A stretch of 64,000 bases of DNA, taken from positions 8,942 through 72,941 of the forward strand of contig CAZYPZ010000013.1 of the NCBI GenBank assembly GCA_964650005.1, written 5' to 3'. Shown here piece after piece: positions 825-28,187 of this stretch (position 1 is the stretch's first letter; every line of letters starts with the position of its first letter). Below the pieces are notes generated by a model. The model did no database searches. It worked only from the letters and a program-made list of their open reading frames with translations, and was not told the DNA's origin. The DNA is from an uncultured bacterium (lineage in GTDB: Bacteria; Armatimonadota; HRBIN16). The translations under genes and the position numbers were made by a program.

Positions 825-1415
825 ATGCGGCTGGTACTGGCGTCTGCGTCTCCTCGACGCGCGGAACTGCTGGCATTGTTGGGTGTTCCGTTCACGGTGG
901 TCCCGGCGGATGTCGATGAACAGTGTGACCCCGGATGGACGCCCGAACAGGCGGTGGTGAACCTCGCCATCCGCAAAGCACTGGCGGTTCCGCAGCATGT
1001 TGAGCCCGATGTATGGGTGTTGGGCGCGGATACGCTGGTAGCTGTGGACGGTGAAATGCTGGGCAAACCGTGCGACCGTGCCGATGCGGTGGCCATGCTG
1101 CGCCGATTGAACGGCCGTACACACCATGTTTGGACCGGTGTTGCGCTGGCTCGCGCCGGTCGGATCGTGAGTGCGAAAGCGGAGTGTACCGGCGTTACGT
1201 TCCGGGCAGTCCCTGACGATTTGCTGCAGCGATACGTGGATACCGGTGAACCCTTTGACAAGGCAGGCGCATATGCCATTCAAGGGTATGGCGCAGTACT
1301 CGTGGCCCGGGTGGATGGGTGCTATAATAATGTAGTCGGTTTACCGACCGCGTTGCTATGCGATCTGCTTCAGGCAGAAGGGGTGCCCTTGCTCAACACG
1401 ACTGCCAACCGCTAA
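825..1415 (+). CDS. maf: Maf-like nucleoside triphosphate pyrophosphatase (septum formation protein Maf)
   Basis: MRLVLASASPRRAELL... N-terminus and Maf-family motifs throughout. GGAGGT RBS 5 nt upstream of the ATG at 825; the ORF-track start at 687 is an upstream extension. Confidence 0.85.
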   Translation: MRLVLASASPRRAELLALLGVPFTVVPADVDEQCDPGWTPEQAVVNLAIRKALAVPQHVEPDVWVLGADTLVAVDGEMLGKPCDRADAVAMLRRLNGRTHHVWTGVALARAGRIVSAKAECTGVTFRAVPDDLLQRYVDTGEPFDKAGAYAIQGYGAVLVARVDGCYNNVVGLPTALLCDLLQAEGVPLLNTTANR

Positions 1416-1453
1416 TTGTTCAACATTGTGATGAGTCTGTCGCCGTTTTACGG

Positions 1454-1482
1454 TTGACAGCGCCTTTTGTTTGTGTAATAAT
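1454..1482 (+). promoter_or_regulatory. Sigma-70-type promoter for rpoBC: TTGACA, 16-17 nt spacer, TAATAAT
   Basis: Perfect -35 TTGACA at 1454-1459 and an AT-rich -10 (TAATAAT, 1476-1482) in an otherwise GC-rich intergenic region, 35 nt upstream of the rpoB RBS. Confidence 0.5.
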
Positions 1483-1515
1483 TGATGTTTGCGTGCAGGC
1501 GTAGGAGGGTACCCA

Positions 1516-4500
1516 ATGACCGCCAGGACTGTACATTCGGCCAAGCAGACCTCTTGTGTACTTGAACTTCCCAACTTGATCTCCGTGCAACTGGATTCGT
1601 TCCGTTGGTTCCTGGAATCGGGACTCAACGAGCTTTTCCGGGATTTCTCTCCGATCAAGGACTTCAGTGGCACTCTGTTCGTCGAGCTGTTGGGCTTCAC
1701 TCTGGGTGAGCCCAAATGGAGCTTGGAGGAGTGCCGAGATCGAGACATGACCTTCGAGGCGCCCATCCGTGCCCGTGTTCGCATGGGGCAGGTGAATGGC
1801 GAAACCCAGGAAACAGAGCTGTACCTCGGCGACCTTCCGTTGATGACTGATAAAGGCACGTTCATCATCAACGGCCGAGAACGCGTCGTGGTCAGCCAGC
1901 TGATCCGTTCCTCGGGCGTCTACTTTGAAAACGTATTTGACCGGATCTTCCGAAAGGGAACACCTACGGGAGTCTGGCTGGAAACATACCTGACCAACCG
2001 TAACATCTTCGGCGCCAAGATCATCCCCAGTGAAGGCCCATGGATCGAGATAGACACCGCGTCCAATGACGTGGTAACCGTCAAGGTGGGCCAGGGCAAG
2101 GCGATCTGCGTGACGACGCTGCTGAGAGCGCTCGAGAGTTTCGAGCAAGCGTGCGAACCGCGCTTTATGAGACTTGGTGATGCGATCAACCGCCGCTATC
2201 TGGGCATACCGTATCAGGAGCGTGAAGAAGTCGACCCGGACACGGGCGAAGTGCTGATGCGTGAATGTCAGATCGAGCAGGTCGAGGGCTATTATCGGAC
2301 CAGTCCCAAGATCAAAGCTCAACCGGTTATGGATGCAGAGACCGGTGAGATCTACGTGATGCCCGGACAGATACTCGATGCAGACACGATCGGGCGCATG
2401 CCTGAGGCGGTCAAAGATCTGTATGTGGCGATCACCACCCCCACAAGCACGAATGAAGAGCTGCTCAACCTGTTCGGCACCCGAAAGAAGTTGGAAAAGC
2501 CCAACATCGAAGATTTGGAGCGCAAGTGGGCACTGACCGAGATCGTCAATCCGCGCAACAACAAGGTGCTTGCCAAGCCGTACCAGTTGATTGACAAAGA
2601 GCATGCCCGTCAGATCGCTGCGCTCGAGCTCGAGTCGGTCGAAGTGTTGGATGTGCCTTCGTTGATTACGGCTACGTTGGATCACGACGGAACGCACAAC
2701 AGCCAAGAAGCGCTGATGGATATCTACAAGAAGACACGGCCGGGTGATCCACCTTCCGAGCAGGCCGCTATGGAGCTGATCCGCAGCCAGTTTTATGACA
2801 GCCGTCGGTATGATCTGGCGCGGGTTGGACGCTATAAGCTGAACCGCAAACTTGGTATCCATGTGGCGCTGGACGTGCGCACAATCACCAAGGAAGACTT
2901 CATCTCGACGCTGGAGTACCTGATCCGGCTGACCGCCGGTGAAGGTGACATTGACGAGATCGACCACCTGAAAAACAAGCGCGTTCGGGCGGTGGGTGAG
3001 CTGCTGCAGAGCCAGCTGCGCAACGGGTTTGTGCGGATGGAGAAAGTGGCGCGTGAGCGGATGACCCAGGACCAGGATCACCTGGTGCCTCAAGCGATCA
3101 TGGCCATCAAACCCATCAGCGCGGCTATCAAGTCGTTCTTCGGCTCCAGCCAGCTGTCTCAGTTTATGGATCAAACCAATCCGTTGAGCGAACTGACCCA
3201 TAAACGACGCTTGAGCGCACTGGGCCCTGGGGGATTGACCCGTCAGTCAGCCACGCTGGAAGTGCGAGATGTCCATGACAGCCACTATGGGCGCATTTGT
3301 CCCATCGAGACCCCGGAAGGTCCGAACATCGGTCTGATCAGTCAGCTGGCCACCTATGCACGGGTCAACGAGTTTGGCTTCATCGAGACGCCGTATCGGC
3401 GCGTCGTGGATGGCAGAGTGACGGATGAAGTCGTGTACCTGTCGGCCGAAGAGGACGAGAAGTACCGCATCGCTCCCGGGGACACCCCGTTGGACAGTCA
3501 TGGCAAGATCAAGCAGGCGCGTGTGCAGGTGCGGCACCAACTGGGCCAAGACACGGTATACCCCGAAGTGGACCGTACCGAAGTCGACTACATGGATGTC
3601 TCACCGGTTCAGCTGGTGTCCATCGCCAGCGCGCTGATCCCGTTCCTGGAGAACGACGATGCCACGCGCGCCTTGATGGGGTCGAACATGCAGAAGCAGG
3701 CTGTGCCGCTGTTGCGTTCGGATGCCCCCGTAGTGAAGACCGGGTTTGAGCGTCGGGCTCTGATGGACTCCGGTGCGCTGGTGCTGGCTCGCCGGCGAGG
3801 CACCGTTCGCCAGGTGACCTGCACCGAGATTACGGTGAAGACGCCCGATGGCAGCCTGGATGTCTATCCGCTGATGAGCCATCTGCAGAGCAACCAAAGC
3901 ACGTGCGTCAGTCAGCGGCCAATCGTATCCCCCGGTGAACGGGTGCGCGAAGGTCAGGTGCTGGCAGACGGCCCCTGTTCTGACCATGGCGAGATGGCGC
4001 TGGGCAAGAACGTGCTGGTCTGCTTCGTGCCATGGGGCGGCTACAACTATGAAGATGCCATTCTGGTTTCACAGCGACTGGTCCGCGATGATGTCTACAG
4101 TTCCATCCATATGGAGCGATATGAGATCGAAGCGCGCGACACGAAGCTGGGACCGGAAGAGATCACGCGTGACATTCCCAACTTGGGTGAAGAGGCGCTG
4201 AAGGACCTGGATGAGAACGGTATCATCCGGATTGGCGCCCAGGTACAGCCGGAAGACATCCTTGTCGGCAAGGTGCAGCCCAAGGGGCAGAGCGAACTGA
4301 GCGCCGAAGAGCGCCTGATCATCGCCATTTTCGGCAAAAAGGCCGAGGAGACACGGGATGTGTCGCTGAAGCTGCCGCACGGTGAAAAAGGCAAAGTGGT
4401 GGACGTGAAGGTGTTTTCACGCTTCCGGTTCCGCTGCAAGTCCTGCGGCATGGAGATCAAACTCAGCAAAAAGCCCGAAGAGGCACAACCGGAATGCAAG

Positions 4501-5721
4501 CGCTGTGGCGGCAACACCGAAAAGCTGCCGCCGGATGAGCTGGCCGCCGGTGTGAACATGCTGGTGCGCGTCTACGTGGCCCAGAAGCGCAAGCTGATGG
4601 AAGGCGACAAAATGGCCGGACGGCATGGAAACAAGGGCGTCATTTCCAAGATCCTGCCCGATGAAGACATGCCATTCCTGCCTGACGGCACACCTGTGGA
4701 TATCGTCTTGAACCCGCTGGGTGTTCCGTCGCGTATGAACATCGGCCAGATCATGGAGACCCATCTGGGCTGGGCAGGGACGTTCTTCGATACCAGTTAC
4801 GAGAATCCCGCCTTCCAAGGCGCGTCCGAACAGGAGATCCTGCAGCAGCTGGCCCTCATGGCCGAAGCCACTCGGGCGCGGGTACTGCAGCAGTATGTGC
4901 GCTCGGAGCTGATGCTCGACCTGCAGTTCCATGCAGACGAGAGCACGGAAACGATGCTGAAGCGTCTGAGGGACCATTTGCTTACACTGCCTGTATGGCA
5001 GATCGAACGGATCGCTCGGGTGGTAAATGTCCCATCGCCCGTCTCACCCATCCTCATGGACTATATGGGGCTGGCATCGATCGGCTGGCGTGAGGCGGTT
5101 ATCGACGAGTCGATGCTGCCTGCTGAGCTGCGCGAAACGGCAGATCCCAGCATCATCGACGATATCATCGAGCATGTCAAACGAAACACCTGGGAACGGT
5201 GCGGTATCGATGAGAAAACCGGAAAGTGCCGCGTGCGCGACGGTATGACCGGTGAACCGTTCGACAATCCGCTGACGGTGGGTGTGATCTACATGCTGAA
5301 GCTGGCGCACCTGGTGGATGACAAGATCCATGCGCGGTCTACCGGTCCCTATTCGCTGGTGACCCAGCAGCCACTGGGTGGCAAGGCGCAATTCGGAGGC
5401 CAGCGTTTCGGCGAAATGGAGGTGTGGGCGCTGGAGGCCTACGGCGCTTCCAACACCCTTCAGGAGATGTTGACCATCAAGTCGGACGATATCCACGGAC
5501 GCGTCAAAGTCTACGAGGCGATCGTCAAGGGTGAGCCGATGATGGACCCGGGCATTCCCGAGTCATTCAAGATCCTGGTCAAGGAGCTGCAGAGCTTGGG
5601 ACTGCGTGTCAGCGCCTACGACATGGATCAACGGGAGATCAACTGGCGCGAAGAGGACGAGCAGGACGCGATGCGATACCGCCGGTTCTCATTCGACCAC
5701 GAAGGTCAGCGGGAGGTATGA
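1516..5721 (+). CDS. rpoB: DNA-directed RNA polymerase subunit beta, with a lineage-specific CxxC-X17-CxxC insertion
   Basis: Unmistakable RpoB signature blocks ([22 protein letters not shown] and others). AGGAGGG RBS before the ATG at 1516. Confidence 0.97.
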
Positions 5722-5728
5722 GCGGTAT

Positions 5729-8700
5729 ATGACGGACGCGCGAAGCTTCGATAAGATCCGGATCAGCATCGCTTCTCCGGATGACATCCGAACATGGTCA
5801 TACGGCGAAGTCAAAAAACCGGAAACCATTAACTACCGCACGTTCAAACCCGAACGCGACGGCCTGTTCTGCGAGCGCATCTTTGGTCCCGTAAAGGACT
5901 GGGAATGCCACTGCGGACGGTACAAGAAACAGAAACACAAAGGCACCATTTGTGAGCGATGCGGCGTGGAAGTGACACGGGCCCGTGTGCGGCGCAGCCG
6001 CATGGGGCACATCGAACTGGCTTCGCCGGTAGCGCATATCTGGTACCTGAAGGCGTTGCCCTCGCCGCTTTCCCTGTTGCTGGACATTCCGGCCCGCAAC
6101 CTGGAAAAGGTTATCTACTTCGCGTCGTACATGGTGACCCATGTCGATCGCCTGCAGATCAACCAGGAGCTGGACGCCATCAAGGGCGCTTTGCGTGAAG
6201 TGATCGAGGACATGCACCAGCAACACGCCGCGGAAGTGGACCGTATGCGGCGTGAGCATAACCAGCAGGTGGAAGAACACCGCAACGCCGAGGGCGACGA
6301 TCACTGGGACGAAGACCAAATCCAGAGCAAGAATAACGCTTTGGAACGCCGTATTTTGCAGGAAGAGGCCGAGCTCAATGAGCGCATCGAAGAGATGCAG
6401 CGTGCCTTGGAAGGCACCGGTGACGCCGCTTCACTGGACAAGCTGGAAAAGAAGCAGCTGATCAACGATGACGAGTGGCGCGGGATTGAAAAGCTGCTGC
6501 GTGAAGTCAGTAAAAAGCTCGGCAAAGATCTGACCACACTGGTGCAGGCGTCTATGGGTGGTGCTGCCATCCGCGATCTGCTCAAAGAGATCGATCTGGA
6601 GCAGCTGCGGTTGGAACTCAAAACCGAGGCTGCCGGCGCGAGCGGGCAAGCCCGGCTGAAACTGATCAAACGCTTGGAGATCGTGGATTCGTTGATCGCC
6701 AGTCGCTGTCGACCGGAATGGATGATCCTGGAGGCGGTACCGGTGCTTCCGCCGGAGTTGCGGCCAATGGTGCAACTGGACGGGGGACGTTTCGCCACAT
6801 CTGACCTGAACGATCTGTATCGCCGGATCATCAACCGGAACAACCGACTGCGCAAGATCGTGGAGATCCGTGCGCCGGAGAGCATTATCAACCACGAAAA
6901 ACGCCTGCTGCAGGAAGCGGTGGATGCGTTGATTGATAACGGGCGGCGCTCGCGCCCCGTTGTGGGATCGAATAACCGCGCCCTGAAGTCGCTGTCCGAC
7001 ATGCTCAAAGGCAAAGAGGGACGGTTCCGCAAGAACCTGCTGGGCAAACGTGTGGACTATTCGGGCCGTTCGGTTATCGTGGTGGGGCCGCATCTGAAAC
7101 TGCATCAGTGCGGTCTTCCCAAAGAGATGGCACTCGAGCTGTTCAAGCCATTCGTGATGAAGAACCTGGTGGACCGTGGCGTCGCCACCAATGTGAAGCA
7201 AGCTAAACGGATGATCGAGCGGCTGAGCGATGCTGTCTGGGACTCCTTGGATGAGGTCATCCGCGAACATCCGGTATTGCTGAACCGTGCGCCGACCCTG
7301 CACCGCTTGGGTATTCAGGCATTCGAGCCGAAGCTGGTGGACGGCAAGGCGATCCAGATCCATCCGCTGGTCTGCACCGCGTTCAACGCGGACTTCGACG
7401 GCGATCAGATGGCTGTACATGTGCCGTTGAGTCCGCTGGCACAGGCCGAAGCGCGTGTGCTGATGCTGTCATCACAAAACCTGTTCTCACCGGCCAGTGG
7501 ACATGCGATTGTGGCGCCAACGCAAGACATCGTGTTGGGCTGCTACTATCTGACCATGACCAGTCCGGATGACTCGGACAATCAGGTGATCGGTTCAACC
7601 CCGTTGCCTATCGGGAGCGAGGTGGAATGGCTGCCGTTCCGCTCCGTGGATGAGGTGATCACCGCCTGGCAGGACCGCCGGCTGCGCTTGCACCAGCGGG
7701 TCAAGGTGCGAATCGAGCGCAACGGTGTCCGTGAGGTGGTGGAGACCACTCCGGGACGCCTGATGTTCCACCAGATCTTGCCTCCGCCCTTGAAGTACAG
7801 CGATGAATATCTCAATCGCACCATGAACAAGAATGAGCTGGGGGCGTTGGTGGTGACCTGCTTCGAAAAAGCAGGACATGAGGCCACGGTCAAGCTTCTG
7901 GACGATGTGAAAGACCTCGGTTTCCGCTTTGCGAAGCTGTCGGGTGTGACCATCGCGATGACCGATATGGATAGCCCGCCGGCTCGCGCCGACATTTTGA
8001 AGCGCACCTATGCTGCGGTGGAGCGTCTGCGCAATCGATATGACCGGGGATTGATCCGTATCGAAGACCGGAAAAAGCAGACTGTGGAGGCGTGGACCCG
8101 CGCAGGAGCTGAACTGGGGCAGGCGATCGTCGAATCCACCGACCATCGTAATCCGCTCTTTATCATTACCGACTCTGGAGCTCGCGGATCCCACAAGCAG
8201 CTGTCCCAGCTGGCGGGTATGCGCGGACTGTTCGCGGACGCTCGCGGCAACCTGATGGAGGACCTGCCGATCACGTCGAACTTCCATGAAGGGCTGTCGG
8301 TTTTCGAATACTTCGTGTCTACGCACGGAGCCCGAAAAGGAATGTCGGACACGGCGTTGCGTACGGCAGATGCGGGCTATCTGACCCGACGTCTGGTTGA
8401 CGCCGCGCAAGATGTGATCGTTCGCATTCATGACTGCCAGACGCAGAACGGTATATTTGTGCGGCTGAAGAGCCAAAACAACAATATCGTGGAGACGGTG
8501 GCAGAGCGGCTCTATGGGCGGATCGCCATGCAGGACCTCGAGCATCCGGTGACCGGAGAACGGTTGATGCAAGCCGGCGAGATGATTGGCGAAGATGCAG
8601 CGCGTCACGTCGATCGGTTGCTCATCGTTGCAGCCGGTCTGCTGGCGGCGCGGCAGACGCCGGAATGTCGGAAGGCGCATGCTGCATGGAAAGCATCTGG

Positions 8701-10384
8701 AGCGAGCTCTGACCTGCAAGCTCTGGCAGCCAGTATGACACAGCATGTTCCAGACAATGAGCTGACTGGCGAGTTTGCCCGTCTGGCGGGCAACCCGGAC
8801 GTCAACGCCGAAATGCTGGGCGTGGATAACTTACTGGATGCCGATGATCAGCGCATACAGGTCTGCCTGGAGATGGTGGAGACCGGCGTGAAGGTGCGTT
8901 CCCCCTTCACCTGCGAACACCAGCGCGGTGTCTGTTCCATGTGCTATGGGCGAGACCTGGCCACAGGACGCCTCGTCGAGATCGGTACAGCCGTTGGTAT
9001 CATTGCGGCAGAATCGATTGGCGAACCGGGTACACAGCTGACAATGCGTACCTTCCATACGGGAGGCGTGGCCGGAACGCACGTGGCCGGTGGTAAGCAG
9101 GCGTTCAACGCCCGCTTGAACCTGCTGGAAGAACTGCGTCATGACTATGCCAACCTGATGGTGAATCGCACGCCTTCCGAAGGCGACTTGCAGACCGAGG
9201 AGAAGATCAGTTCCAAGCAGTTCCGCGAACTGATGGATACCTATATCTCTCCGGCGGGTTCATTACCCCGGGTTATCGACCTCTTCATGGCCACGGAGGC
9301 ATTGAAGGGGCGCGCCATCATGTCAGAATACGAAGGCGTGGTTCGGTCCATAGAAAATCGCGACCTGATGCGCATGGTGGTACTCGAGGTTGTGCTGCCC
9401 GTAAGGGAGCATGGCGCCGAAGTGCTGGACAAGCGCTTGGCTGAGGACGTGTACGATCCGGCGTTGGCCGCGGAGAGCACGGAGTTAGAGCCGATCCTCA
9501 AAGCGGGAGAAGTGATCAAGGCGCCCCAGTTGGAGCTTCTGCTCAAGATGGGGGTTCGCCAGGTGAAGGCACGCGAAGAGGTGCTGGTGCCGGCGCGTGG
9601 TAACCTGAAGGTCGCTGTGGGACAGCATGTGATGCCCGGAGATGCCTTGACCGAGGGGTTGCTGCAACCGCGTGAGCTGCTCAAACTCAAGGGCGTGTCC
9701 GCCGTGCAGGAATATCTGGTTCAAGAGATCCAGAAGGTCTATAAGCAGCAGGGCGTGGATATCCATGATAAACACATGGAGATCATCGTACGTCAGATGC
9801 TGAAGAAACGGCGCGTCGTCGATCCGGGCGACACGCGTTTCCTGCCCGGGCGGATCGTGGACAAGTTCGTGTTTGAGGCCGAAAACCAGCGGGTTCGGAA
9901 TGAAGGTGGACGGGAGGCTACGGCCGAGTGGGTTCTGCAGAGCATCACTGAATCGGCTTTGACCACGGACAGCTTCCTGTCCGCTGCGTCATTCGAACGG
10001 ACCACGCACGTGCTCACCGAGGCGGCGGTTCGTGGAAAGATGGATGATCTGGTTGGCCTTAAGGAGAACGTGATCATCGGACGACTGATACCTGCCGGAA
10101 CCGGCTTCAAGCCATACGACCGGCTGGAACCCGTGCCGCTTCCGGAAGGTGAAACGATTCCCGACGAAGCCTTTAACCCGGTGCTTCAGCTGATCGAGGA
10201 CGATGGGCCGCTTACCCAAGGCACATTCGATACACACCAGTTTGGCCAGGATGATGGTTTGGTTGATCTGGTGGAAGACGAGGATCACGAAGTCGAGGCT
10301 CTTGGGGACGGTGAGTCGCCGATGGACCCCTTGGCCGAAGTCGATGATGACGCTCCGGTGTCATCATTTACCCAAGAAGACTGA
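5729..10384 (+). CDS. rpoC: DNA-directed RNA polymerase subunit beta-prime, 1551 aa with lineage-specific insertions and an acidic C-terminal tail
   Basis: N-terminus [54 protein letters not shown]. Zn-binding CHCGRYK...C...C motif and the NADFDGDQM catalytic loop are present. Confidence 0.97.
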
Positions 10385-11656: not shown

Positions 11657-13750
<2,094 letters not shown>

Positions 13751-18151: not shown

Positions 18152-18577
18152 ATGGCAAAGGCAGTCGCCAAATTTATACGTCTGTCGCCGCGCAAGTCCC
18201 GGCTCGTGATCGATGCGATTCGCGGACAGTATGTGAGCGATGCCCTGCTGTTCCTGCGTTATTCACCGCAGCGGGCCGCCAAGGCGATCTACAAAGTGGT
18301 GCATTCGGCAGCGGCGAACACCATGAATCAGGCAGAGAACGACCGGCGCGTGGTCGACGAGGATTCGTTGAAGATTACCGCGGCGTTCATCGATGAGGGG
18401 CCACGCATCAAACGGGTGCATCCGCGTGCCATGGGGCGCGTGTATCCCATCATCAAACCGATGTGTCACATCACGGTGGAGGTTGATGAGGTTCCGCGTG
18501 AGCGGAAGAGTACCAGCCGACAGCGCCGTGTGGCCGCATCGACAGCGGCGAACAAGAACGCCGCCACGGCCGAATAG
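18152..18577 (+). CDS. rplV: 50S ribosomal protein L22
   Basis: Standard L22 sequence in the conserved operon position. Confidence 0.93.
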   Translation: MAKAVAKFIRLSPRKSRLVIDAIRGQYVSDALLFLRYSPQRAAKAIYKVVHSAAANTMNQAENDRRVVDEDSLKITAAFIDEGPRIKRVHPRAMGRVYPIIKPMCHITVEVDEVPRERKSTSRQRRVAASTAANKNAATAE

Positions 18578-18602
18578 GCGAACCAGTCACAGGAGGAAGT
18601 CA

Positions 18603-19430
18603 TTGGGACAGAAGATACATCCGATCGGATACCGGGTCGGCATCATCCGTGACTATAGGAGCCACTGGTTCTCGGCCAAGGGCTACAGTCAATGGGTATA
18701 TGAGGACGCCAAAATCCGTCGGTTCTTGATGAAGGATCTGCCGAAGCGCCGCCAGGAACTGGCCAGCGCCGGTATTGCAGCCGTCGATATCAGCCGCGCG
18801 GCCAACCGGGTAGACGTGGTCATCCATACAGCACGCCCGGGTGTGGTGATCGGCCGACAAGGCAAAGGACTTGACGAGATCCGCGATGCATTGATAGCCA
18901 TTCTGGATCCGGGGTTGAAGCACCGCATGGCGCATTCGAAGAACGCGCAACCCAACGTGGACGTGCGACCGCGTGTGGAAGAGATCCGCGATCCGGATCG
19001 GTATGCGCAACTGGTGGCCGACAACATCGCCCAGTCCATCACACGACGTGTGGCGTTCAAACGCGCTATGCGGCAGGGTGTGATGCGAGCTATGCGCGCA
19101 GGTGCTCAGGGTATCAAGGTGCGCTGTGCGGGACGCCTGGGTGGCAGCGAAATGGCGCGTGTCGAGATGGTGAAGGAAGGCAAGATCCCCCTGCAGACCA
19201 TCCGTGCCGATGTGGATTATGCACTGGCCGAGGCGCCCACCACCTATGGCAATATCGGCGTCAAGGTGTGGATCTACCGCGGGGATGTGATGCCCGGCGA
19301 GATGGTGAACGAATCCGCCTTGGAGCCGCAGGGCGCGTCCCGACAATTGGGTGACCGGCGACGATCTGCTGGGCGGCGTGGATCCGGCAACGGTCCGTCG
19401 AGAAGGAGAAGCAGCCATGTTGATGCCTAG
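18603..19430 (+). CDS. rpsC: 30S ribosomal protein S3 with an Arg/Gly/Ser-rich C-terminal extension
   Basis: (L)[13 protein letters not shown]... N-terminus. TTG start preceded by an AGGAGG RBS at 18591-18596. The ORF-track start at 18393 overlaps rplV and was rejected. Confidence 0.85.
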
Positions 19431-19884
19431 GAGGGTTAAGTACCGCAAGATGCACCGCGGGAACCGCCGAGGCGTGGCCTCTGGCGCCACCAAGCTGGAT
19501 TTTGGCGAATACGGTCTGCAGGCTCTGGAGTCCTGTTGGATGACCAGCAATCAGATCGAGGCGGCCCGTATCGCCATGACTCGCTACATCCGGCGCGGTG
19601 GAAAGATCTGGATTCGGATTTTTCCCGATAAGAGCTATACCAAGAAACCGGCTGAGACCCGCATGGGCTCCGGTAAGGGCGCGCCAGAAGGCTGGGTGGC
19701 CGTGGTGAAGCCGGGACGTATACTGTTTGAAATGGCCGGGCCGACTGAAGCCGTCGCCCGTGAGGCCATGCGGTTGGCTGCACACAAGTTGCCGATCGCG
19801 ACCAAGTTCGTCACACGACGCGATTTCGAGGTGAAGCATGAAGGCACTGAAGGCGGAGGATCTGCGGAAGCTGAGTCAGCCTGA
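19417..19884 (+). CDS. rplP: 50S ribosomal protein L16 (about 15 aa longer at the C-terminus than usual)
   Basis: [15 protein letters not shown]... with a GAAGGAGAAG RBS. Overlaps rpsC by 14 nt and rpmC by 47 nt. Confidence 0.88.
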
Positions 19885-20044
19885 GCTGGAGAAGCAGCTG
19901 CAGCAAGAAAGGGAGAGGCTATTCTCTCTGCGTCAGAACCGAGCGACCCGAAAACTGACTGACTCCGCGAGTGTACCGGTAGTGCGGCGAAACATCGCCC
20001 GACTGCTGACAATCATCTCGGAGCAGCGTCAGTCCGGCGCCTAG
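19838..20044 (+). CDS. rpmC: 50S ribosomal protein L29
   Basis: [21 protein letters not shown]... Confidence 0.9.
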
Positions 20045-20059
20045 CACGGGGAGGTAAGC

Positions 20060-20335
20060 ATGGAAGAGGTACAGACAACCGCTGCGCGGGCGCGCCGGAA
20101 AGTACGGCAGGGGCGCGTAGTCAGCGACAAAATGGATAAGACAGTGGTCGTGGCGGTAGAAAACCGGGTGCGCCACCCGCTGTACGGCAAAACCGTGAAG
20201 TACACCAAACGCTATCACGTACACGATGAGACAAATGCGTGTGGTGTGGGCGATGTGGTTGAGATCATGGAAACGCGCCCGATCAGCCGCACCAAGTGTT
20301 GGCGTGTCGCTCGCGTTGTCGAGAAGGCCCGGTAA
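20060..20335 (+). CDS. rpsQ: 30S ribosomal protein S17
   Basis: [25 protein letters not shown]... Confidence 0.93.
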
Positions 20336-20349
20336 AGGAGAGCTGCGTC

Positions 20350-20718
20350 ATGATACAAATCTATTCGCGGCTCAAAGCCGCAGACAACAGCGGTGCCCGT
20401 CAATTGATGTGCATCCGGGTGCTGAAAGGCAGCAATGCCCGTTACGCCCGCGTGGGTGACATCATTGTGGCCGTCGTTAAATCGGCTACGCCGGGCATGC
20501 AGGTCAAAAAGAGCGATGTGGTCAAATGCGTGGTCGTTCGCACCCGCCGGCACATCAAGCGCAAGGACGGTTCGTCACTGCGCTTCGATGATAACGCGGC
20601 TGTGGTTCTGAACAACAACTTGGAGCCCCGCGGCACCCGTATCTTCGGGCCCGTGGCGCGTGAGCTGCGCGAACGCGGTCAGATGCGCGTGATCTCATTG
20701 GCTCCCGAAGTTCTGTAA
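20350..20718 (+). CDS. rplN: 50S ribosomal protein L14
   Basis: [17 protein letters not shown]... Confidence 0.95.
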
Positions 20719-20728
20719 GGAGGGGGTC

Positions 20729-21100
20729 ATGGCTCTTCAGAAGCATACCATACAGAAAACCGTGAAGCCCATGAAGATACGTAAGGGCGACATGGTGCAA
20801 GTGATAGCCGGAAAAGACAATGGGAAACGGGCGAAGGTGATCCAGGCGATCCCGGCAGACGGCAAGGTTGTGCTGGACGGCCTGAATCTGGTGGTGCGCC
20901 ATCAAAAGCGGCAGTCGACCAATCGGGCGACCCCCGAAAGTCAGACAGGCCGTATCACCAAGCCCGCTCCAATGCCGGTTGCTAAAGTCATGCTGGTCTG
21001 TCCGCATTGTTCCAAGTCGACTCGTATCGGCATGACGGTTGCGGGTGAGCAGCGCGTGCGGCAATGCAAGAAGTGCCGCGAAATCATAGATTCGGTGTAA
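20729..21100 (+). CDS. rplX: 50S ribosomal protein L24 with a C-terminal CxxC...CxxC zinc-ribbon extension
   Basis: [25 protein letters not shown] motif; GGAGGGGG RBS; C-terminal CPHCSKS...CKKC. Confidence 0.9.
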
Positions 21101-21104
21101 CGCG

Positions 21105-21659
21105 ATGAGCAACTACGAACCACGACTGAAGGCGCGGTACCGGGATGAGGTAGTCCCGTTGCTGATGGAAAAGTTCCAATACACCACAATCATGCAGGCG
21201 CCCAGATTGGTGAAGGTCGTCTTGAACATGGGTGTAGGACAGGGTGACAGCGACCCCAAACAGTTGGAAGGTGCAGTACGTGACCTTACGTTGATCTCAG
21301 GTCAGAAACCGCTGGTCACCAGGGCGCGTAAGTCCATCTCCAACTTCAAGATCCGACAGGGACATAAGATCGGCTGTAAAGTCACACTGCGCGGTAATGC
21401 AATGTGGGATTTCCTGGATAAATGGATGTCCATTACATTGCCGCGGGTGCGTGATTTCCAGGGTATCTCCCTGAACTCGTTTGACGGTCATGGCAATTTC
21501 GCTACCGGCATGCGCGAACAGATAGTGTTCCCTGAGATCAACTATGATCAGGTGGACCGAACACGGGGACTCGATGTGTGTATCGTCACCACGGCAAAGA
21601 CGGACCAGGAGGCGCGTGAGCTTTTGCGTGCCATGGGCATGCCGTTTGCCCGCAAATAG
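21105..21659 (+). CDS. rplE: 50S ribosomal protein L5
   Basis: Standard L5 sequence. Confidence 0.95.
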
Positions 21660-21785
21660 CCCGATACACGCCGCGTGACACACGTGGCGTCCACACGGAA
21701 CACACGTAGCGGCGCCGTCTCGGTACCAGTACCGGGGCGGTTGTCCGCAACTCGAGGGTGAATTCCTAATCGCGGAGGCGTACCA

Positions 21786-23867
21786 GTGAAGCAGGTTGGT
21801 ATAGATGCGATCCGCAACATGGCCTTTTTAGGTCACGGCGGATCTGGCAAATCCAGTATGGCCGAAGCGCTGCTGTTCAGCGCGGCTAACATCGACCGTC
21901 TGGGTCGCGTGGATGACGGGAGCTCTTGCTCGGACTTCGACGACGACGAGAAGAAGAGGCATATCAGTATCAACCTCTCGGTGATACCCGTTCTCTGGAA
22001 AGAGACCAAGCTGAATATACTGGATGCCCCGGGCTTTTTGGACTTCGTGGGGGAAGTGTACAGCGCCCTGGCCGTCAGTGACGCCGCCGTCATTTTCACT
22101 CCGGCCACCAGCGCACTGGAAGTAGGTTTTCACATCGCCTGGGAACAGGTGGAAGATCGCAGTCTGCCTTGCGCTGTATGTGTCAATAAGATGGACCGTG
22201 AGAACGCCGATTTCGGCGCACGCGTGAGGGAATTGCGAGGAACATATGGCACCAAGGTGGTGCCGGTTGCGGTGCCTATCGGATCGCAGACAACGTTTGA
22301 CGGCGTGATCGACTTGCTCAACAACCGGGCGATCCAAGGCGTTGGGGCGGCTGCAAAGGAGGTTCCCGTCGATTCGGTCATCGGTGCTGTTCAAGACGAT
22401 CTGGACGAGTATCGTCAGTGGCTGACCGAAGCCGCCGCAGAAGGCGATGACGAATTGATGATGAAGTACCTGGAAGAGGAGCAGTTGACGCCAGAAGAGG
22501 TCGCACAGGGGATCGTCGCCGCCTTCAAGGCGGGAAAGATCGTTCCCGTGTTCGGTGCTTCTGCAGCCAACCCATCCGGCTTGACCGCTGTGCTGGATCT
22601 GATGGCACAGCTGTTCCCGACGCCGGCCGACAGAGGACCCGCACGGTCGGCAACAGGGGATGAGACTCGCCTGCCGTCTGACTCGGAGCCCTTCTCTGCT
22701 TTCGTTTTCAAGACGACCGCCGATCCGTTTGTGGGTAAGTTGACTTACTTCAAAGTGATGAGCGGGCAGCTCAAAGCCGATTCGCACGTGTGGAATGCCA
22801 ATAAGTCCCATGACGAGCGGATCGGACAACCATTCTTCCTGCGCGGAAAGACGCAAGCCAATACGGCTGTGGTCGGGGCGGGCGATATCGCCGCGGTATC
22901 CAAGTTGCAGGAGACTGGTACAAACGACACATTGTGCGATCGGGCCAAACCCATCGTGTACCCGCCAATCGCTTTCCCCAAGCCGGTGTACAGTCTGGCC
23001 GTGCGAGCCAAGAGCAAGGCCGATGAGGATAAGATGGGCAATGCGATCGCAAGAATGGCGGAAGAGGATCCAACATTTACCTACCATCGTGATCCCGAAA
23101 CCAGCCAGACGGTCATATCCGGCATGGGTGACACCCATTTGGATGTGGCGATGGCGCGAATGAAGCGCAAATTCGGTACCGAGGTGGAAACAGAGCCCAT
23201 CCGCATAGCTTATCGTGAGGCCATACAAGGCAAGGCAGAGGCGCAGGGACGACACAAGAAACAGACCGGAGGACGTGGGCAGTTTGGTGACTGCTGGATC
23301 CGGATCGAGCCTACAGAGCGTGGCGCCGGGTTCGAGTTTGCCGATGAGATCTTTGGAGGCGCTATCCCCAAGCAGTACGTGCCAGCTGTGGAAAAAGGTG
23401 TGCGTACCGCTATGGCGCGGGGTGTGATCGCCGGTTACCCTGTGGTGGATGTGAAAGTCACGGTGTACGATGGCTCGTTCCACACGGTTGACTCATCGGA
23501 CGCTGCATTCCAGATGGCCGGTATCTTGGCGTTCAATAACGCAGCTGCCAAGGCGGGGGTGGCGTTGCTGGAGCCGATCATGAAGGTCGAAGTGATCGTG
23601 CCGGAAGAAGACATGGGCGCGGTGATGAGCGACTTCAACGGCAAGCGTGGACGCGTTCTGGGAATGGAAAGCGCCGGAAAGGGACGACAGTTGGTGACGG
23701 CGCTGGTTCCGCAGGCGGAGATGCTTCGCTATGCAATCGATCTGCGCTCGATCACCCGGGGACGCGGCAGCTTTACCACCGAGTTCTCACACTACGAAGA
23801 AGTGCCGGCACATGTGGCCCAGCCTGTCATCGATGCGTATAAGGCGCAGAAGGCCAAAGACGAGTAG
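21786..23867 (+). CDS. EF-G paralogue of the EF-G-2/EFG-like type (translational GTPase), sitting inside the r-protein operon
   Basis: Five-domain EF-G architecture over 693 aa. The G1 motif is divergent (GHGGSGKSS rather than AHIDAGKTT); DAPG (G3) and NKMD (G4) are present, and the C-terminal QTGGRGQFG block is EF-G-like. GTG start with a GGAGG RBS. Confidence 0.85.
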   Translation: MKQVGIDAIRNMAFLGHGGSGKSSMAEALLFSAANIDRLGRVDDGSSCSDFDDDEKKRHISINLSVIPVLWKETKLNILDAPGFLDFVGEVYSALAVSDAAVIFTPATSALEVGFHIAWEQVEDRSLPCAVCVNKMDRENADFGARVRELRGTYGTKVVPVAVPIGSQTTFDGVIDLLNNRAIQGVGAAAKEVPVDSVIGAVQDDLDEYRQWLTEAAAEGDDELMMKYLEEEQLTPEEVAQGIVAAFKAGKIVPVFGASAANPSGLTAVLDLMAQLFPTPADRGPARSATGDETRLPSDSEPFSAFVFKTTADPFVGKLTYFKVMSGQLKADSHVWNANKSHDERIGQPFFLRGKTQANTAVVGAGDIAAVSKLQETGTNDTLCDRAKPIVYPPIAFPKPVYSLAVRAKSKADEDKMGNAIARMAEEDPTFTYHRDPETSQTVISGMGDTHLDVAMARMKRKFGTEVETEPIRIAYREAIQGKAEAQGRHKKQTGGRGQFGDCWIRIEPTERGAGFEFADEIFGGAIPKQYVPAVEKGVRTAMARGVIAGYPVVDVKVTVYDGSFHTVDSSDAAFQMAGILAFNNAAAKAGVALLEPIMKVEVIVPEEDMGAVMSDFNGKRGRVLGMESAGKGRQLVTALVPQAEMLRYAIDLRSITRGRGSFTTEFSHYEEVPAHVAQPVIDAYKAQKAKDE

Positions 23868-23899
23868 TAGTATTAGCGGGTCGGCCTACCGGTCGGCCC

Positions 23900-23918
23900 G
23901 TATTTTGCGGTATAATAT
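23900..23918 (+). promoter_or_regulatory. Possible internal promoter (-10 TATAAT) upstream of rpsN
   Basis: Perfect TATAAT hexamer (GCGGTATAATATC), rare in this GC-rich sequence, about 70 nt upstream of rpsN. The -35 is poor. Confidence 0.3.
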
Positions 23919-23990
23919 CACTCGTGCCCCATGGTCCCAGGCCCTCACAGGGCTTGGATGGCAAATGGGCGCCCATTCGGAGGAGACGAT

Positions 23991-24176
23991 TTGGCGAAGC
24001 ACTGCCTGATGCTGAAAGCTCGGCAGAAACCGAAATTCGGAGTGCGCCGGTATAACCGCTGCAACATCTGCGGCCGCCCTCATGCGTACTTCCGCAAGTT
24101 CGGCATCTGCCGGATCTGCTTCCGGGAAATGGCCCACAAAGGCCTGCTTCCGGGAGTCCATAAGGCTTCCTGGTAA
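23991..24176 (+). CDS. rpsN: 30S ribosomal protein S14, type Z (zinc-binding, 61 aa)
   Basis: [23 protein letters not shown] CxxC...CxxC motif. A TTG start preceded by GGAGGAG gives the canonical 61-aa length; the alternative ATG at 23958 would add an 11-aa extension. Confidence 0.85.
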
Positions 24177-24313
24177 CAGAAAGCTGAAGAACGGGGCGGC
24201 CGAAGGCCGTTCGCGATCGCCCCGCATGTTGTTCGCGCTCAGATACCTCCATCGTGCCGACAGGCTCGCAATGGACCGTCTGGACGCCGTATCGGAAAAC
24301 CAAGGAGACACGT

Positions 24314-24724
24314 ATGCCTGTCACCGATCCGATTGCGGATCTGCTTACACGCATTCGCAACGCCAATATGGCCTATCATGACTCGCTGGAGCTGGACAGT
24401 TCGAAGATCAAGGTCGAAGTGTGCAAGATCCTGAAGGACGAGGGCTATATCAAAGGCTTTGAGCTGATCGACGCGCAGCCTCAGCCCCGGCTGAGGGTGT
24501 TCATGAAGTTTGGCCCGCGCCGCGGTCCGACCCGTGAACGCGCCATCACCAATTTGAAGCGCGTCAGCAAGCCCGGCCTGCGCATATATCGCAAAGCGGC
24601 AGAACTGAAACCCGTGCTGCGCGGTTTTGGCATCGCCATTATCAGCACCTCGAAAGGTTTGATGACCGACCGTGAGGCCCGAAAGCAGGGCTACGGCGGT
24701 GAAGTCATCGCCGAGGTCTGGTGA
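24314..24724 (+). CDS. rpsH: 30S ribosomal protein S8
   Basis: [17 protein letters not shown]... Confidence 0.95.
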
Positions 24725-24758
24725 TCGGGACAGCTAGCGGACAGGAGGAGACGTAAAG

Positions 24759-25331
24759 ATGTCACGGATTGGAAAGTTGCCAATCGCCCTTCCCGCCGGC
24801 GTCCAGGTCGACTGGCAGCCGGGGCACATCACCGTGAAGGGCCCCAAAGGCGAACTCTCACGAGACCTGCCAGTGGATATCACGGTACGGCAGGAAGACT
24901 CGACGCTCTATGTAGAGCGACCCACCGATGCACGGCACCATAGAGCCCAGCACGGTCTGGTGCGGTCTTTGGTAAACAACATGGTCACCGGTGTGTCAAC
25001 GGGATTCTCCAAGACACTTGAAGTGATCGGCGTTGGATATCGCGCCCAGTTGGATGGCCCGAATCTGGTGCTTAATCTGGGACTGTCCCATCAGGTCGTC
25101 ATGGAGCCGCTGGAAGGTGTCAGTTTCCAGGTGGGAATCGACACAAATACACGTATGCCCTTCGTCGTGGTCAGCGGCGCGAATAAGGAAAATGTGGGAC
25201 AGCAGTGCGCGTTGATCCGCAGGTATCGCCCGCCCGAACCGTACAAGGGCAAGGGCATACGTTTCCGCGGTGAGCAGATCCGCCGGAAGGCCGGTAAGGC
25301 TGGAAAAGCCGGCGCCAAGGGGAAGAAGTAG
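24759..25331 (+). CDS. rplF: 50S ribosomal protein L6 with a Lys/Ala/Gly-rich C-terminal tail
   Basis: [15 protein letters not shown]... Confidence 0.95.
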
Positions 25332-25333
25332 CC

Positions 25334-25711
25334 ATGATTAAGCATAAGAAGATGGCCGAACGTCAGCGCAGCCGGCTGCTGCGGCATGCGCGAGTACGCA
25401 AGCGGGTGTCCGGTACCGCTGAACGCCCACGCATGTGCGTATTTCGCAGCCTGCAGTACCTGTATGTGCAGCTGATCGATGACACAGCAGGTCACACCGT
25501 GTGTGCGGCATCCTCATTGGAGCCCGCTCTCAAAGAGTCGTTGGAGCACACTGACAATATGGAGGCGGCCGTAGCCGTCGGAAAACTGATCGCGGAGCGC
25601 GCGATTGCCAAAGGCATCACCTCCGTCGTGTTCGACCGCGCCGGTTTCCGGTATCACGGTCGAATCAAGGCGCTGGCCGATGCCGCCCGGGAAGGAGGGC
25701 TGGTGTTTTAA
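25334..25711 (+). CDS. rplR: 50S ribosomal protein L18
   Basis: Standard L18 sequence. Confidence 0.93.
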
Positions 25712-25713
25712 CG

Positions 25714-26256
25714 ATGGCAAGAGTCAACCCTGATACCCTCAACCTGACCGAGAGCGTGGTGAAAACCAATCGGGTGCAGAAGACACACAAGGGTGGTCGC
25801 ACCATGAGTTGGAACTCGCTGGTGGTTGTTGGCGATGGCGAAGGACACGTGGGCGCCGGCTTAGGCAAGGCGCGCGCTATCCCGGATGCCGTTCGCAAAG
25901 GCACCGAAGATGCCCGTAAACGCTTGATCGAAGTACCCATTTTGGGGCACACGATCCCGCATGACGTGGTTGCCTCCTTCGGTTCGTCCACCATAGTGTT
26001 GCATCCAGCCGCTCCTGGTACGGGTGTTGTTGCCGGAACCGCTTGCCGCGCGATCCTGGTAGCGGCGGGCGTGCAGGATGTGCTGGCCAAATGCATCGGC
26101 AGCACCAATGCAATCAACGTGGCTTGGGCGACCATGAAGGCGCTGAAGTCGTTGCGCCGCGTCGAGGACGTCGCTTCCATGCGCGGTAAGGATCCCGCCA
26201 AGCTGGTGCCGTGGGCGCGTAAATATGGGATCGGTGAGTCGGAGGCTGCTGAATGA
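25714..26256 (+). CDS. rpsE: 30S ribosomal protein S5
   Basis: Standard S5 sequence. Confidence 0.95.
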
Positions 26257-26453
26257 AGCTGAAGATCACGCTGGTCAAGAGCCCAATTGGATACTCAGAG
26301 CGCCAGAAACGCACGGTGCTGGCGCTGGGGCTGCGGAAGATGAACCATACCGTCTTGCAGCCTGATAACGACGCCATTCGCGGCATGGCCTTCAAGGTTC
26401 GCCATCTGGTGAAGCTGGAAGAGGTTGCCGACGAACAGGCAGGGGAGGCGTAA
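26253..26453 (+). CDS. rpmD: 50S ribosomal protein L30
   Basis: [29 protein letters not shown]... Confidence 0.92.
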
Positions 26454-26900
26454 ATGAGCGTTCTTCACTTACTGGGCCCCAATCCGGGTGCAGTCAAGAA
26501 GGGTGAGCGCAAAGGTCGCGGTATCGGTACCGGAAACGGTAAGACCGCTGGCCGGGGAACCAAGGGGCAGCGGGCGCGCAACAAGGTGCGAGCGCAATTC
26601 GAAGGTGGGCAGACACCGCTGCATCGGCGCCTGCCGCGCAAGAAGGGCTTCCGTAATCCGAACCATGTGGAGTACTCGGTGCTCAACGTGGGCGACTTGG
26701 AGAACTGGTTCGAGAGTGGAGCGGAGGTCAACATCGAGACATTGATGGCGTGCGGAGCGATCGGCACCCTCAAAAACGGCGGCGTGAAGATCCTGGGTGA
26801 TGGCGAACTGACTGTCCCGCTGACCGTAAAGGTACATGCGTGCAGCAAATCCGCTATCGAGAAGATCCAAGCCGCTGGCGGTACTGTGGAGGCCATATAA
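26454..26900 (+). CDS. rplO: 50S ribosomal protein L15
   Basis: Standard L15 sequence. Confidence 0.93.
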
Positions 26901-26903
26901 CAG

Positions 26904-28187
26904 ATGCTGGAGTCGTTAGTTGCGGCATGGCGCCTTCCTGATCTCAGGAAGCGCATTCTGTTCGTGTTCGGCGCATTCGCTGTATATACGCTGGGGTTGC
27001 ACATACCCGTTCCGGGGATCAACCACGCGGCTCTCGAAAAGCTGTTCGCGTCGGGCGCCATGTTTGGTCTGATCGACGTGTTCTCCGGCGGGGCGCTGCG
27101 TAAGTTCACGATCTTCGCCATGGGCATCGTGCCGTATATTAACGCCTCCATCATCATGCAGTTGCTGATTGCCGCCATACCGGCGTGGAAAGAGCTGCAG
27201 AAAGAGGGGCAGACCGGTCAGAAGGAGCTCAACAAAAAGACCCGTTACCTTACGGTCGCCTTGGCGTTCTTTCAATCGCTGGGAATCAGCACCATGTTCC
27301 TGCACGGCGGTATTCTCACCGCCGGTCCGGTTCAGCTGGTATTCACATGTGTCGTACTGACAGCCGGCACCATGTTCCTGCTGTGGTTGGGCGAGCAGAT
27401 CACTGAACACGGTCTGGGTAACGGAGTATCGTTGATTATCTTCTGCAGTATCACCGCCTCACTGCCATGGCAGGTGGCCAAGGTGTTGGAGCAGGCCAGC
27501 GTTACCAGCTATCTTAGCCTGCTTGCGCTCGCGGTGCTGTTCCTTGCCACCATCGTGGGAATCGTGTATGTCACGCAGGCAAGCCGCAAGATACCCATAC
27601 AGCACGCCCGTCGGGTGGTGGGTATGCGCCAGATGGGCGGTCACAGCAGCTATCTGCCGTTGAAGATCGCCATGGCCGGCGTGATCCCGATCATCTTTGC
27701 CATTTCGCTTCAGCTGCTGCCGATGACCATTCTGTCCGCCATACCGGGAGATGAGGGGTTCATCGGTACATTGAAGATGCTTTCACACCGGTTGAGCCCG
27801 GGTGACAATCCGGTAGCGTTGTTGCTGTATGCCGGGATCATCATGCTGTTCACCTACTTCTATACAGCTGTGCAGTTTGATGTGAACGACATCGCCGATA
27901 ACCTGAAGAAGCATGGCAGTTATATCCCAGGGATCCGTCCGGGAAAGCCCACATCTGACTATCTGGACAAGGTGATCACGCGGATCACTTTCGCCGGTGC
28001 GTTGTTCCTGGCCGCAGTGGCGGTTATTCAATACGTCGCGCCGGGACTGACCGGCGTGAACATCGGCACGTTCTCGTTGATTGGCGGTACCTCTCTGCTG
28101 ATTATGGTGGGAGTGGCGCTTGAGACCATGCAGAGTATCGAGGCGCAGCTGATGATGCGCAACTACGAAGGATTCTTGAAGGACTAG
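26904..28187 (+). CDS. secY: Preprotein translocase subunit SecY
   Basis: 427 aa, 10-TM SecY; in the conserved position. Confidence 0.95.
   Translation: MLESLVAAWRLPDLRKRILFVFGAFAVYTLGLHIPVPGINHAALEKLFASGAMFGLIDVFSGGALRKFTIFAMGIVPYINASIIMQLLIAAIPAWKELQKEGQTGQKELNKKTRYLTVALAFFQSLGISTMFLHGGILTAGPVQLVFTCVVLTAGTMFLLWLGEQITEHGLGNGVSLIIFCSITASLPWQVAKVLEQASVTSYLSLLALAVLFLATIVGIVYVTQASRKIPIQHARRVVGMRQMGGHSSYLPLKIAMAGVIPIIFAISLQLLPMTILSAIPGDEGFIGTLKMLSHRLSPGDNPVALLLYAGIIMLFTYFYTAVQFDVNDIADNLKKHGSYIPGIRPGKPTSDYLDKVITRITFAGALFLAAVAVIQYVAPGLTGVNIGTFSLIGGTSLLIMVGVALETMQSIEAQLMMRNYEGFLKD

Follow-up and report, generated by a model that had tools for sequence, protein, structure and literature searches.

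What is a second gene for elongation factor G (EF-G) doing between rplE and rpsN, inside the spc operon of ribosomal-protein genes, in a bacterium that also carries a canonical fusA in its str operon? The question is raised by a 64,000-nucleotide (nt) stretch of DNA from an uncultured member of the Armatimonadota (lineage HRBIN16; assembly GCA_964650005.1, contig CAZYPZ010000013.1, positions 8,942 to 72,941 of the forward strand), the whole of which is referred to here as the window. A first reading, made from the letters and a list of open reading frames (ORFs) and called here the sequence-only reading, had noticed the gene, assigned it to the EF-G-2 type and described it as inserted at a highly conserved junction. 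Judged by comparison of sequences and gene orders, the paralogue is a member of the EFG II subfamily, and its position in the spc operon is conserved and vertically inherited: not a one-off event, but a feature of a whole clade of Armatimonadota. We hypothesize, and on balance believe, that an EFG II gene was inserted once in the ancestor of this clade, has been kept in the spc operon by vertical descent, and encodes a GTP-binding translocase that would hydrolyse little or no GTP. The genes on which the argument turns are the following.

21786..23867, + strand: EFG II-subfamily EF-G paralogue, 693 aa, GTG start; domains G, G', II, III, IV and V
11657..13750, + strand: canonical fusA (EFG I) of the str operon, the housekeeping EF-G, which coexists with the paralogue
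21105..21659, + strand: rplE (L5), upstream neighbour of the paralogue, recognized from its ORF and translation; it matches L5 in all related loci
23991..24176, + strand: rpsN (S14, 61-aa zinc-ribbon type), downstream neighbour, with a TTG start and CxxC...CxxC

Identity of the paralogue

The sequence-only reading was right that an EF-G-type gene of 693 aa lies between rplE and rpsN on the same strand, and a Pfam scan found all five EF-G domains in the ORF. Margus et al. (2011) define the EFG II subfamily by six positions of type I and several of type II; at these positions, in Thermus EF-G-1 numbering, we compared the paralogue with the FusA of the same window. The EFG II residue is present at five of the six type I positions, as is the Lys-Lys pair of domain IV. 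Position 19, the first of the P-loop, is Gly in the paralogue (G16) and Ala in FusA, and position 64 in G2 is Ser in the paralogue and Thr in FusA; the paralogue residue is invariant at both positions in 120/120 family members. Positions 316, 360 and 379, the last of which is Lys or Arg in EFG II, are Thr (T310), Gly (G354) and Lys (K373) in the paralogue against Ile, Ala and Gly in FusA, and these three residues are the same in every embedded locus examined and in 78–79 of the 79 other EFG II loci. At positions 498/499 in domain IV the paralogue has Lys-Lys (K491, K492) where FusA has Val-Arg, and the RGITI of canonical EF-G has become RHISI in the window paralogue and RKISI in most of its family. 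Position 28 departs from the pattern, being Met (Met25) in the paralogue and Thr in its FusA: a hydrophobic residue, but not the Leu found in 99 % of EFG II (Margus et al., 2011). Its kin have Leu there (the four other embedded loci aligned, and at least 90 % of the family), as do 71 of the 79 other EFG II loci, the remainder having Val (six), Ala (one) or Thr (one).

Curated models and similarity searches agree with this placement. The paralogue scored 896.4 bits on the NCBIfam subfamily model NF009381 ('elongation factor G'; cut-off 583) and 652.6 bits on the canonical EF-G model TIGR00484, below its cut-off of 659.4, against 1133.8 bits for the window FusA, which confirms the canonical gene that had been placed 8 kb upstream; on NF058620 it scored 574 bits against a cut-off of 1000. 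Identity to the window FusA is 41 % (BLASTP) and is unevenly distributed, at 46–59 % in domains II–V (59 % in domain IV) and 29–31 % in G and G'. Because domains II–V have diverged so little, the whole protein scores higher against canonical Thermus EF-G (568 bits) than against Thermus EF-G-2 (1wdt, 439 bits) or Bacteroides EF-G2 (433 bits). With the G domain alone the ranking is different: 1wdt gave 106.9 bits, 7uvp 101.1 and 9k0z 96.9, compared with 92.8 for canonical Thermus EF-G; another canonical EF-G, 7pao, reached 100.1. Thermus EF-G-2 and M. smegmatis EF-G2, two of the proteins with which comparison had been proposed, thus outscore canonical Thermus EF-G on this domain, as does Bacteroides EF-G2. 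The G-domain alignments share the EFG II signature, in which DAPGY, DCPGS or DTPGY is in each case followed by DFVGE, and the earlier subfamily call is therefore right. In a neighbour-joining tree with a single EFG I outgroup, the paralogue grouped with about 80 EFG II genes of other phyla and was separated from its own FusA by a long branch. The protein represents a new phylum-level group of a known subfamily.

Catalytic centre and retained parts

Two motif differences had been pointed out from the sequence, GHGGSGKSS for AHIDAGKTT in G1 and DAPG for DTPG in G3, and both were borne out by comparison of the paralogue with the window FusA. The key difference had gone unmentioned: it is the loss of the catalytic His that follows DxPG. 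G3 reads DAPGF in the paralogue and DTPGH in FusA, so that the switch II His is replaced by Phe. This His is missing from all 120 of the closest relatives (Tyr in 116, Phe in four) and from all 79 sampled EFG II genes of other phyla (Tyr in 56, Phe in 15, Asp in seven, Ala in one). Next to the catalytic site, the Ile-Asp of the P-loop is replaced by Gly-Gly. The motifs for nucleotide binding have been kept (P-loop GxxxxGK[ST], DxPG, G4 NKMD and G5 SA), and binding is therefore expected. Also retained are the two domain IV tip loops that reach the decoding centre, GGRGQFG and DGSFHTVDSS (DGSFHxVDSS), and the acidic G' helix that contacts L7/L12. An AF2 model of the paralogue (pLDDT 77) gave TM scores of 0.83–0.88 to ribosome-bound EF-G and 0.79 to 8dmf; the fold search confirmed the EF-G fold and did not tell the subfamilies apart.

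As to what such a change does to activity, the Mycobacterium smegmatis EF-G2, which has Tyr at the catalytic position, has no ribosome-dependent GTPase activity, and the substitution H88Y in M. smegmatis EF-G1 nearly abolishes GTPase activity. Bacteroides EF-G2 reportedly enables GTP-independent translation. Loss of GTP hydrolysis in the window paralogue is likely, though not certain.

A separate variation concerns G4. In 53 of the 120 family members the Asp of NKxD that confers guanine specificity is replaced by Glu (NKME or NKLE), and Glu is found there also in copies from Fimbriimonadia and Chthonomonas (noted in L055, L057 and L077; L numbers denote related loci), whereas the window protein keeps NKMD (family alignment position 137, window 22194–22196). 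In a GTPase the substitution is unusual, and nucleotide specificity may be affected by it.

Distribution and inheritance

The closest relatives of the paralogue are hundreds of Armatimonadota proteins of 55–65 % identity, named merely 'elongation factor G'. Gene context was taken from look-ups of the encoding contigs, from a scan of reference genomes and from a scan of metagenomes, and the locus counts of the two scans are a sample among the matches listed, not a census. The order L14-L24-L5-EFG II-S14-S8-L6 recurs in at least 13 distinct related loci besides the window, at 52–65 % identity. Among the matches listed, L5-EFG II-S14 was found in 8/8 informative loci at 55 % identity or more to the window protein, in 5/15 at 50–55 %, and in none of 141 below 50 %, the last group comprising loci from Bacillota, Chloroflexota, Actinomycetota, Deltaproteobacteria, Nitrospirae and other phyla as well as copies from Fimbriimonadia, Chthonomonas and Capsulimonadaceae. 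Around 70 non-embedded EFG II genes, the 140 neighbours fell into 157 Pfam families, none of which occurred more than five times and none of which was a ribosomal protein. The possibility that the arrangement is already common and annotated is thus partly realized: it is conserved within the clade and its product is annotated as elongation factor G, but it is not phylum-wide, and we found no published description of an EFG II gene stably embedded in the spc operon in the literature searched.

That the arrangement does not extend to the whole phylum follows from L054 (Armatimonadota bin117, CP070816.1; 3462–7733), where the rplE-rpsN junction is intact and the order is L29-S17-EFG II-L14-L24-L5-S14-S8. 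The EFG II gene of this locus, 48 % identical and with TKLD as its G4, lies between rpsQ and rplN, at the classical boundary of the S10 and spc operons. It has diverged from the embedded clade in proportion to the ribosomal proteins (0.50 for EFG II, 0.46 for the ribosomal proteins); this could be one and the same gene that has changed its place in the cluster, or the outcome of a second capture. In the same locus, upstream of rpmC (24–3044), two ORFs of 223 and 716 aa with no Pfam match occupy the place where rplP and rpsC are expected; either the S10 operon may be broken at this point or the two ORFs may be spurious.

The neighbour-joining tree gathers the embedded copies into one group within the EFG II radiation, and the window's own subclade was recovered in 60/60 bootstrap replicates; neighbour joining did not resolve the deep branching order within EFG II. 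Pairwise EFG II distances follow those of S14+S8+L6 closely (Mantel r = 0.906, a value reached by 0/5000 permutations), and EFG II evolves 1.11 times as fast as these ribosomal proteins. The arrangement fits a single old insertion followed by vertical inheritance under strong purifying selection. The window copy departs from the family consensus at 31 well-conserved positions; the notion that it is degenerating was rejected, since the deviations are evenly distributed among the domains and are typical of its subclade.

Spacers and coupling to rpsN

The sequence-only reading had held that the gene is likely co-transcribed with the genes before it, citing an upstream gap of 126 nt without a terminator and a GGAGG ribosome-binding site (RBS). 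The details were borne out: rplE ends at 21659, GGAGG lies at 21774–21778, 7 nt before the GTG, and a consensus scan found neither a terminator nor a promoter match in this spacer. For co-transcription itself, strong support comes from the relatives, in which EFG II overlaps rpsN or lies 0–18 nt from it. In L089, L091 and L092 the EFG II frame overlaps the rpsN ATG by 8 nt (ATGGCTAA, in which ATG is the rpsN start), which implies translational coupling of the factor and S14. The EFG II stop codon abuts the rpsN ATG in L113; the gap is 15–18 nt and contains AGGAGG in L002, L004 and L087, and it is 11 nt in L005. On the other side, the rplE-EFG II gap is 4–18 nt in four of these tight-junction loci. 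With such junctions EFG II must be part of the operon in these relatives and, to judge from the gene overlaps and short gaps, it is tightly coupled to rpsN there. In the window, co-transcription with the spc genes is plausible. The spacer features of the window, and the overlaps in relatives, are listed below.

21660..21785, + strand: rplE-EFG II spacer, 126 nt, with two stable hairpins (about 21668–21690 and about 21706–21751) and no U-tract
23876..23901, + strand: 11-bp GC-rich hairpin just after the EFG II stop codon, followed by AUUUUG; terminator-like
23911..23916, + strand: TATAAT, candidate -10 box for rpsN and the genes downstream, without a recognizable -35
23924..23972, + strand: second stem-loop of the EFG II-rpsN spacer, upstream of the rpsN RBS GGAGGAG (23979–23985)
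L089:2061–2068, L091:2274–2281 and L092:2741–2748: 8-nt overlap of EFG II and rpsN

The upstream spacer of the window folds at -54.9 kcal/mol (z = -2.2) and is not conserved in relatives, where the gap measures 4–297 nt. The downstream spacer, of 123 nt, folds at -53 kcal/mol (z = -2.71), and the 63-nt segment of it that holds the hairpin at 23876–23901 at -25.5 kcal/mol (z = -2.97). With just four U, this hairpin falls below the U-tract threshold of the terminator scan, and it could act as a partial or weak terminator or mark a processing site. In neither gap did the consensus scan find an intrinsic terminator on the + strand, nor did it find a sigma-70-like -35/-10 pair within 19000–27000, and an Rfam scan of the same interval (E <= 1) gave no match, hence no known ribosomal-protein leader or riboswitch in the spacers. 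The TATAAT that had been proposed to re-drive rpsN is present, but six such hexamers occur in the window against 6.0 expected by chance; enrichment was accordingly rejected as an argument for a promoter, and that reading of the motif is weakened. A block of about 19 nt around the -10-like box (GTAnAATATnAnTCGTGCC) aligns between the window and L001, the closest relative of the window locus on a long contig, and the rest of the spacer does not align.

Two further interpretations of the spacers were tried and rejected. The hairpins are not REP-like repeats, each being unique within the window, nor is there a conserved spacer RNA element, as alignments with L001, L085 and L086 share RBS and start regions and the block of about 19 nt in L001. 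Many relatives have no spacer at all. Elsewhere in the operon, the rpsN-rpsH spacer of the window (24177–24313) is 137 nt long and contains a GC-rich inverted repeat, GGGGCG...CGCCCC, and that of L001 is about 125 nt; the spc operon of this subclade seems to be characterized by long structured spacers.

Comparison with known factors

Within EFG II, Thermus thermophilus EF-G-2 (PDB 1WDT/2DY1) is similar to the paralogue in having five domains, the P-loop Gly and the switch I Ser, in having lost RGITI, in the Thr/Gly/Lys residues of domain II and the Lys-Lys of domain IV, and in DxPG followed by an aromatic residue and by DFVGE. The paralogue also resembles the subfamily in occurring beside a canonical fusA that has kept its place in the str operon. 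Unlike Thermus EF-G-2, its domains II–V are far less diverged, and in contrast to other sampled EFG II genes, which have no conserved context, it lies inside the spc operon. The EFG II set of Margus et al. (2011) did not include this Armatimonadota group.

Two other members of the subfamily suggest what it might do, and the earlier statement that no role is established for the subfamily is now out of date, roles having been published for both. Bacteroides thetaiotaomicron EF-G2 (fusA2, BT2167; 7UVP/8DMF) has an EFG II-type G domain without the catalytic His, reading DCPGS where the window paralogue reads DAPGF, and it is the functional model for translocation without GTP hydrolysis. It differs in its G4 (NQLD) and in a P-loop without His (GSSGSGKTT). 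Its gene, fusA2, is a stand-alone gene induced about 238-fold by carbon limitation via Cur/BT4338, whereas the window gene lies among ribosomal-protein genes. M. smegmatis EF-G2 (MSMEG_6535; 9K0Z/9K10), in which the catalytic His is likewise replaced (by Tyr), binds ribosomes and has been described as stress-specific and non-essential. It is more degenerate than the window paralogue, with the P-loop GPSGGGKTT, TKLD as G4 and a shorter C-terminal helix, and it has not been reported from a ribosomal-protein operon. Canonical EF-G (FusA, EFG I) shares the fold, the order of domains, the domain IV tip loops and the acidic G' helix; it is distinguished from the paralogue by the catalytic His, the Ile-Asp of the P-loop, RGITI and its location in the str operon.

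Proposed function and alternatives

Our working hypothesis is that one ancient insertion placed an EFG II gene between rplE and rpsN in the ancestor of one Armatimonadota clade, and that the gene has since been passed on by vertical descent as a functioning component of the spc operon. The elements that activate GTP hydrolysis on the ribosome have been lost, through replacement of the switch II His by Phe (mostly Tyr in the family) and of Ile-Asp by Gly-Gly. The paralogue would bind GTP and the ribosome as EF-G does, and would promote translocation with little or no GTP hydrolysis, as has reportedly been shown for Bacteroides EF-G2. It is probably made together with the ribosomal proteins; its synthesis would keep step with theirs, alongside canonical FusA, unlike that of the Bacteroides factor, which is induced by starvation. 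The co-transcription, loss of GTPase activity, translocase activity and level of expression that we infer for the window protein are, in other words, predictions from its sequence and that of its relatives.

Several observations weigh against this account. The paralogue does not reach the EF-G2 equivalog model NF009377 (657.9 bits; cut-off 890). Bootstrap support for strict monophyly of the embedded clade was 26/60, rising to 34/60 when L031 was counted in. Long structured spacers of 123–297 nt surround EFG II in the window, in L001 and in L088; in the window a strong hairpin with a weak U-tract follows the gene, and in L001 a hairpin, TTTTT and TATAAT lie between rplE and EFG II (L001:3847–3886), and a GC hairpin with TTT and then TAGAAT lies after it (L001:6113–6153), which suggests that the EFG II gene of L001 may be a separately started and stopped unit. 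EFG II may therefore be separately regulated in this subclade, and partial termination with re-initiation is possible. Codon adaptation (0.677 for EFG II, 0.672 for fusA, 0.759 for tuf and 0.59–0.73 for other genes) separates neither EFG II nor fusA from ordinary genes; it was rejected as a proxy for expression since the codon bias of the genome is too small. Finally, Thermus EF-G-2 has Tyr at the catalytic position and yet GTPase and poly(Phe) activity have been reported for it, so that loss of the His is no proof of lost hydrolysis.

The main rival to a translocase is a ribosome-binding regulator of the mycobacterial EF-G2 type, which would sit in the factor site of 70S or 50S particles, neither hydrolysing GTP nor translocating, and would modulate or protect ribosomes under stress or during idling, the operon keeping its level proportional to ribosome number. 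Membership of the same subfamily and loss of the same catalytic His speak for it, and translocation has been doubted as the main role of EF-GII (Atkinson, 2015). However, the divergence of the M. smegmatis protein extends to the P-loop (GPSGG), switch I and G4 (TKLD), and the loops of its domain IV have shifted away from the tRNA, whereas in the window paralogue His17, R-x-I-S-I, NKMD and domain IV tip loops of the canonical kind have been preserved; a ribosomal-protein operon, moreover, is growth-coupled and not stress-coupled. Because the window paralogue retains features that the mycobacterial protein has lost, we regard such a regulator as possible but less likely than the translocase.

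More speculative, and in our opinion doubtful, is the idea that the paralogue has become a quasi-ribosomal component, held at stoichiometric levels through its coupling to rpsN, which might serve either as the routine hydrolysis-free translocase of slow growers or as a proof-reading or maturation factor resembling the eukaryotic EF-2 paralogue EFL1. Either role, if true, would be new for a bacterial EF-G paralogue.

A factor for ribosome biogenesis or quality control, testing or releasing new subunits in the manner of EFL1, would suit the stable embedding among ribosomal-protein genes, the translational coupling seen in several relatives and a rate of EFG II evolution like that of ribosomal proteins. 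EFL1 is a working GTPase, however, and the paralogue is without the catalytic His; no EFG II member has been linked to assembly, and no partner gene for an assembly factor lies nearby in the window. We think this explanation improbable. A little less credible again is an EF-G specialized for recycling with the ribosome recycling factor (RRF), like Borrelia EF-G2, Pseudomonas aeruginosa EF-G1B or mitochondrial EF-G2. Division of labour among EF-G paralogues is well documented, but M. smegmatis EF-G2, itself an EFG II member, cannot recycle, and P. aeruginosa EF-G1B belongs to EFG I and not to EFG II. Margus et al. reportedly place the spirochaete-type and mitochondrial recycling factors within the spdEFG subfamilies; the 'KDG' insertion in switch I that marks spdEFG1 is absent from the paralogue, whose BLASTP alignment to FusA is free of gaps over residues 1–286, and the match to mitochondrial RRF2 is merely 255–265 bits.

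A tetracycline-type ribosome-protection protein is very improbable, for although such proteins have the general EF-G-like fold in common with the paralogue, and the Bacteroides EF-G2 entry 7uvp is labelled 'TetQ' in the PDB, the paralogue scored 298.5 bits on NF012153 (tet_protect; cut-off 775), 154–184 bits on the Tet(M), Tet(O) and Tet(Q) models (cut-offs 1100–1425) and 165–179 bits against TetO and TetM structures, as opposed to 568 for EF-G, and its domain IV loops are of the EF-G type; the prediction that it would fall among neither the FusA nor the Tet proteins is upheld by these scores and by the tree. That the gene was inserted recently by horizontal transfer, or is a decaying passenger that plays no part in the operon, is effectively refuted: the unusually long spacers that flank the window copy, and its departures from the family consensus, might be read that way, but the position is kept in the related loci described above, EFG II distances correlate with those of the ribosomal proteins, the G+C content equals that of the flanks, the ORF is intact with all domains conserved, the departures are even over the domains and common to the subclade, and the flanking hairpins are not repeated within the window.

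Other features of the locus

The gene order on the + strand of the window is the usual rpoBC-str-S10-spc. In it, tuf follows fusA, and the paralogue is found 8 kb downstream of fusA, outside the str operon. The GTG start of the paralogue aligns with the ATG start (MKQVG) of L001, and the TTG start of rpsN is common to the window, L001, L002, L004, L086, L087 and L088; Pfam Ribosomal_S14 was called for the S14 of L085 and L086. Two other genes of the window have unusual frames. That of rpsC (18393–19430) ends in an Arg/Ser/Gly-rich tail of about 40 aa and runs into the start of rplP, the S3 proteins of related loci being 234–302 aa long. The rpoB and rpoC frames (1489–10384) are long, with ORF extents of 1410 and 1592 aa (upper extents), which suggests lineage-specific insertions.

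Significance

EFG II is the most widespread EF-G paralogue and its role is still debated, the activities described so far being weak translocation in Thermus, GTP-independent translation during starvation in Bacteroides and, in mycobacteria, a stress factor that has no ribosome-dependent GTPase activity. Fixation inside the spc operon implies a regulatory logic opposite to that of starvation or stress, in which output is proportional to ribosomes. Insertions into this cluster of ribosomal-protein operons typically fall between operons (Brandis, 2021), and the clade described here, made up mostly of uncultivated bacteria, offers a rare case of a large non-ribosomal gene that is stably inside one rather than between two. 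Confirmation of our hypothesis would argue for hydrolysis-poor translocation as a constitutive element of translation in some bacteria, and in these organisms one could then ask, in a natural setting, for what purpose EF-G has to hydrolyse GTP.

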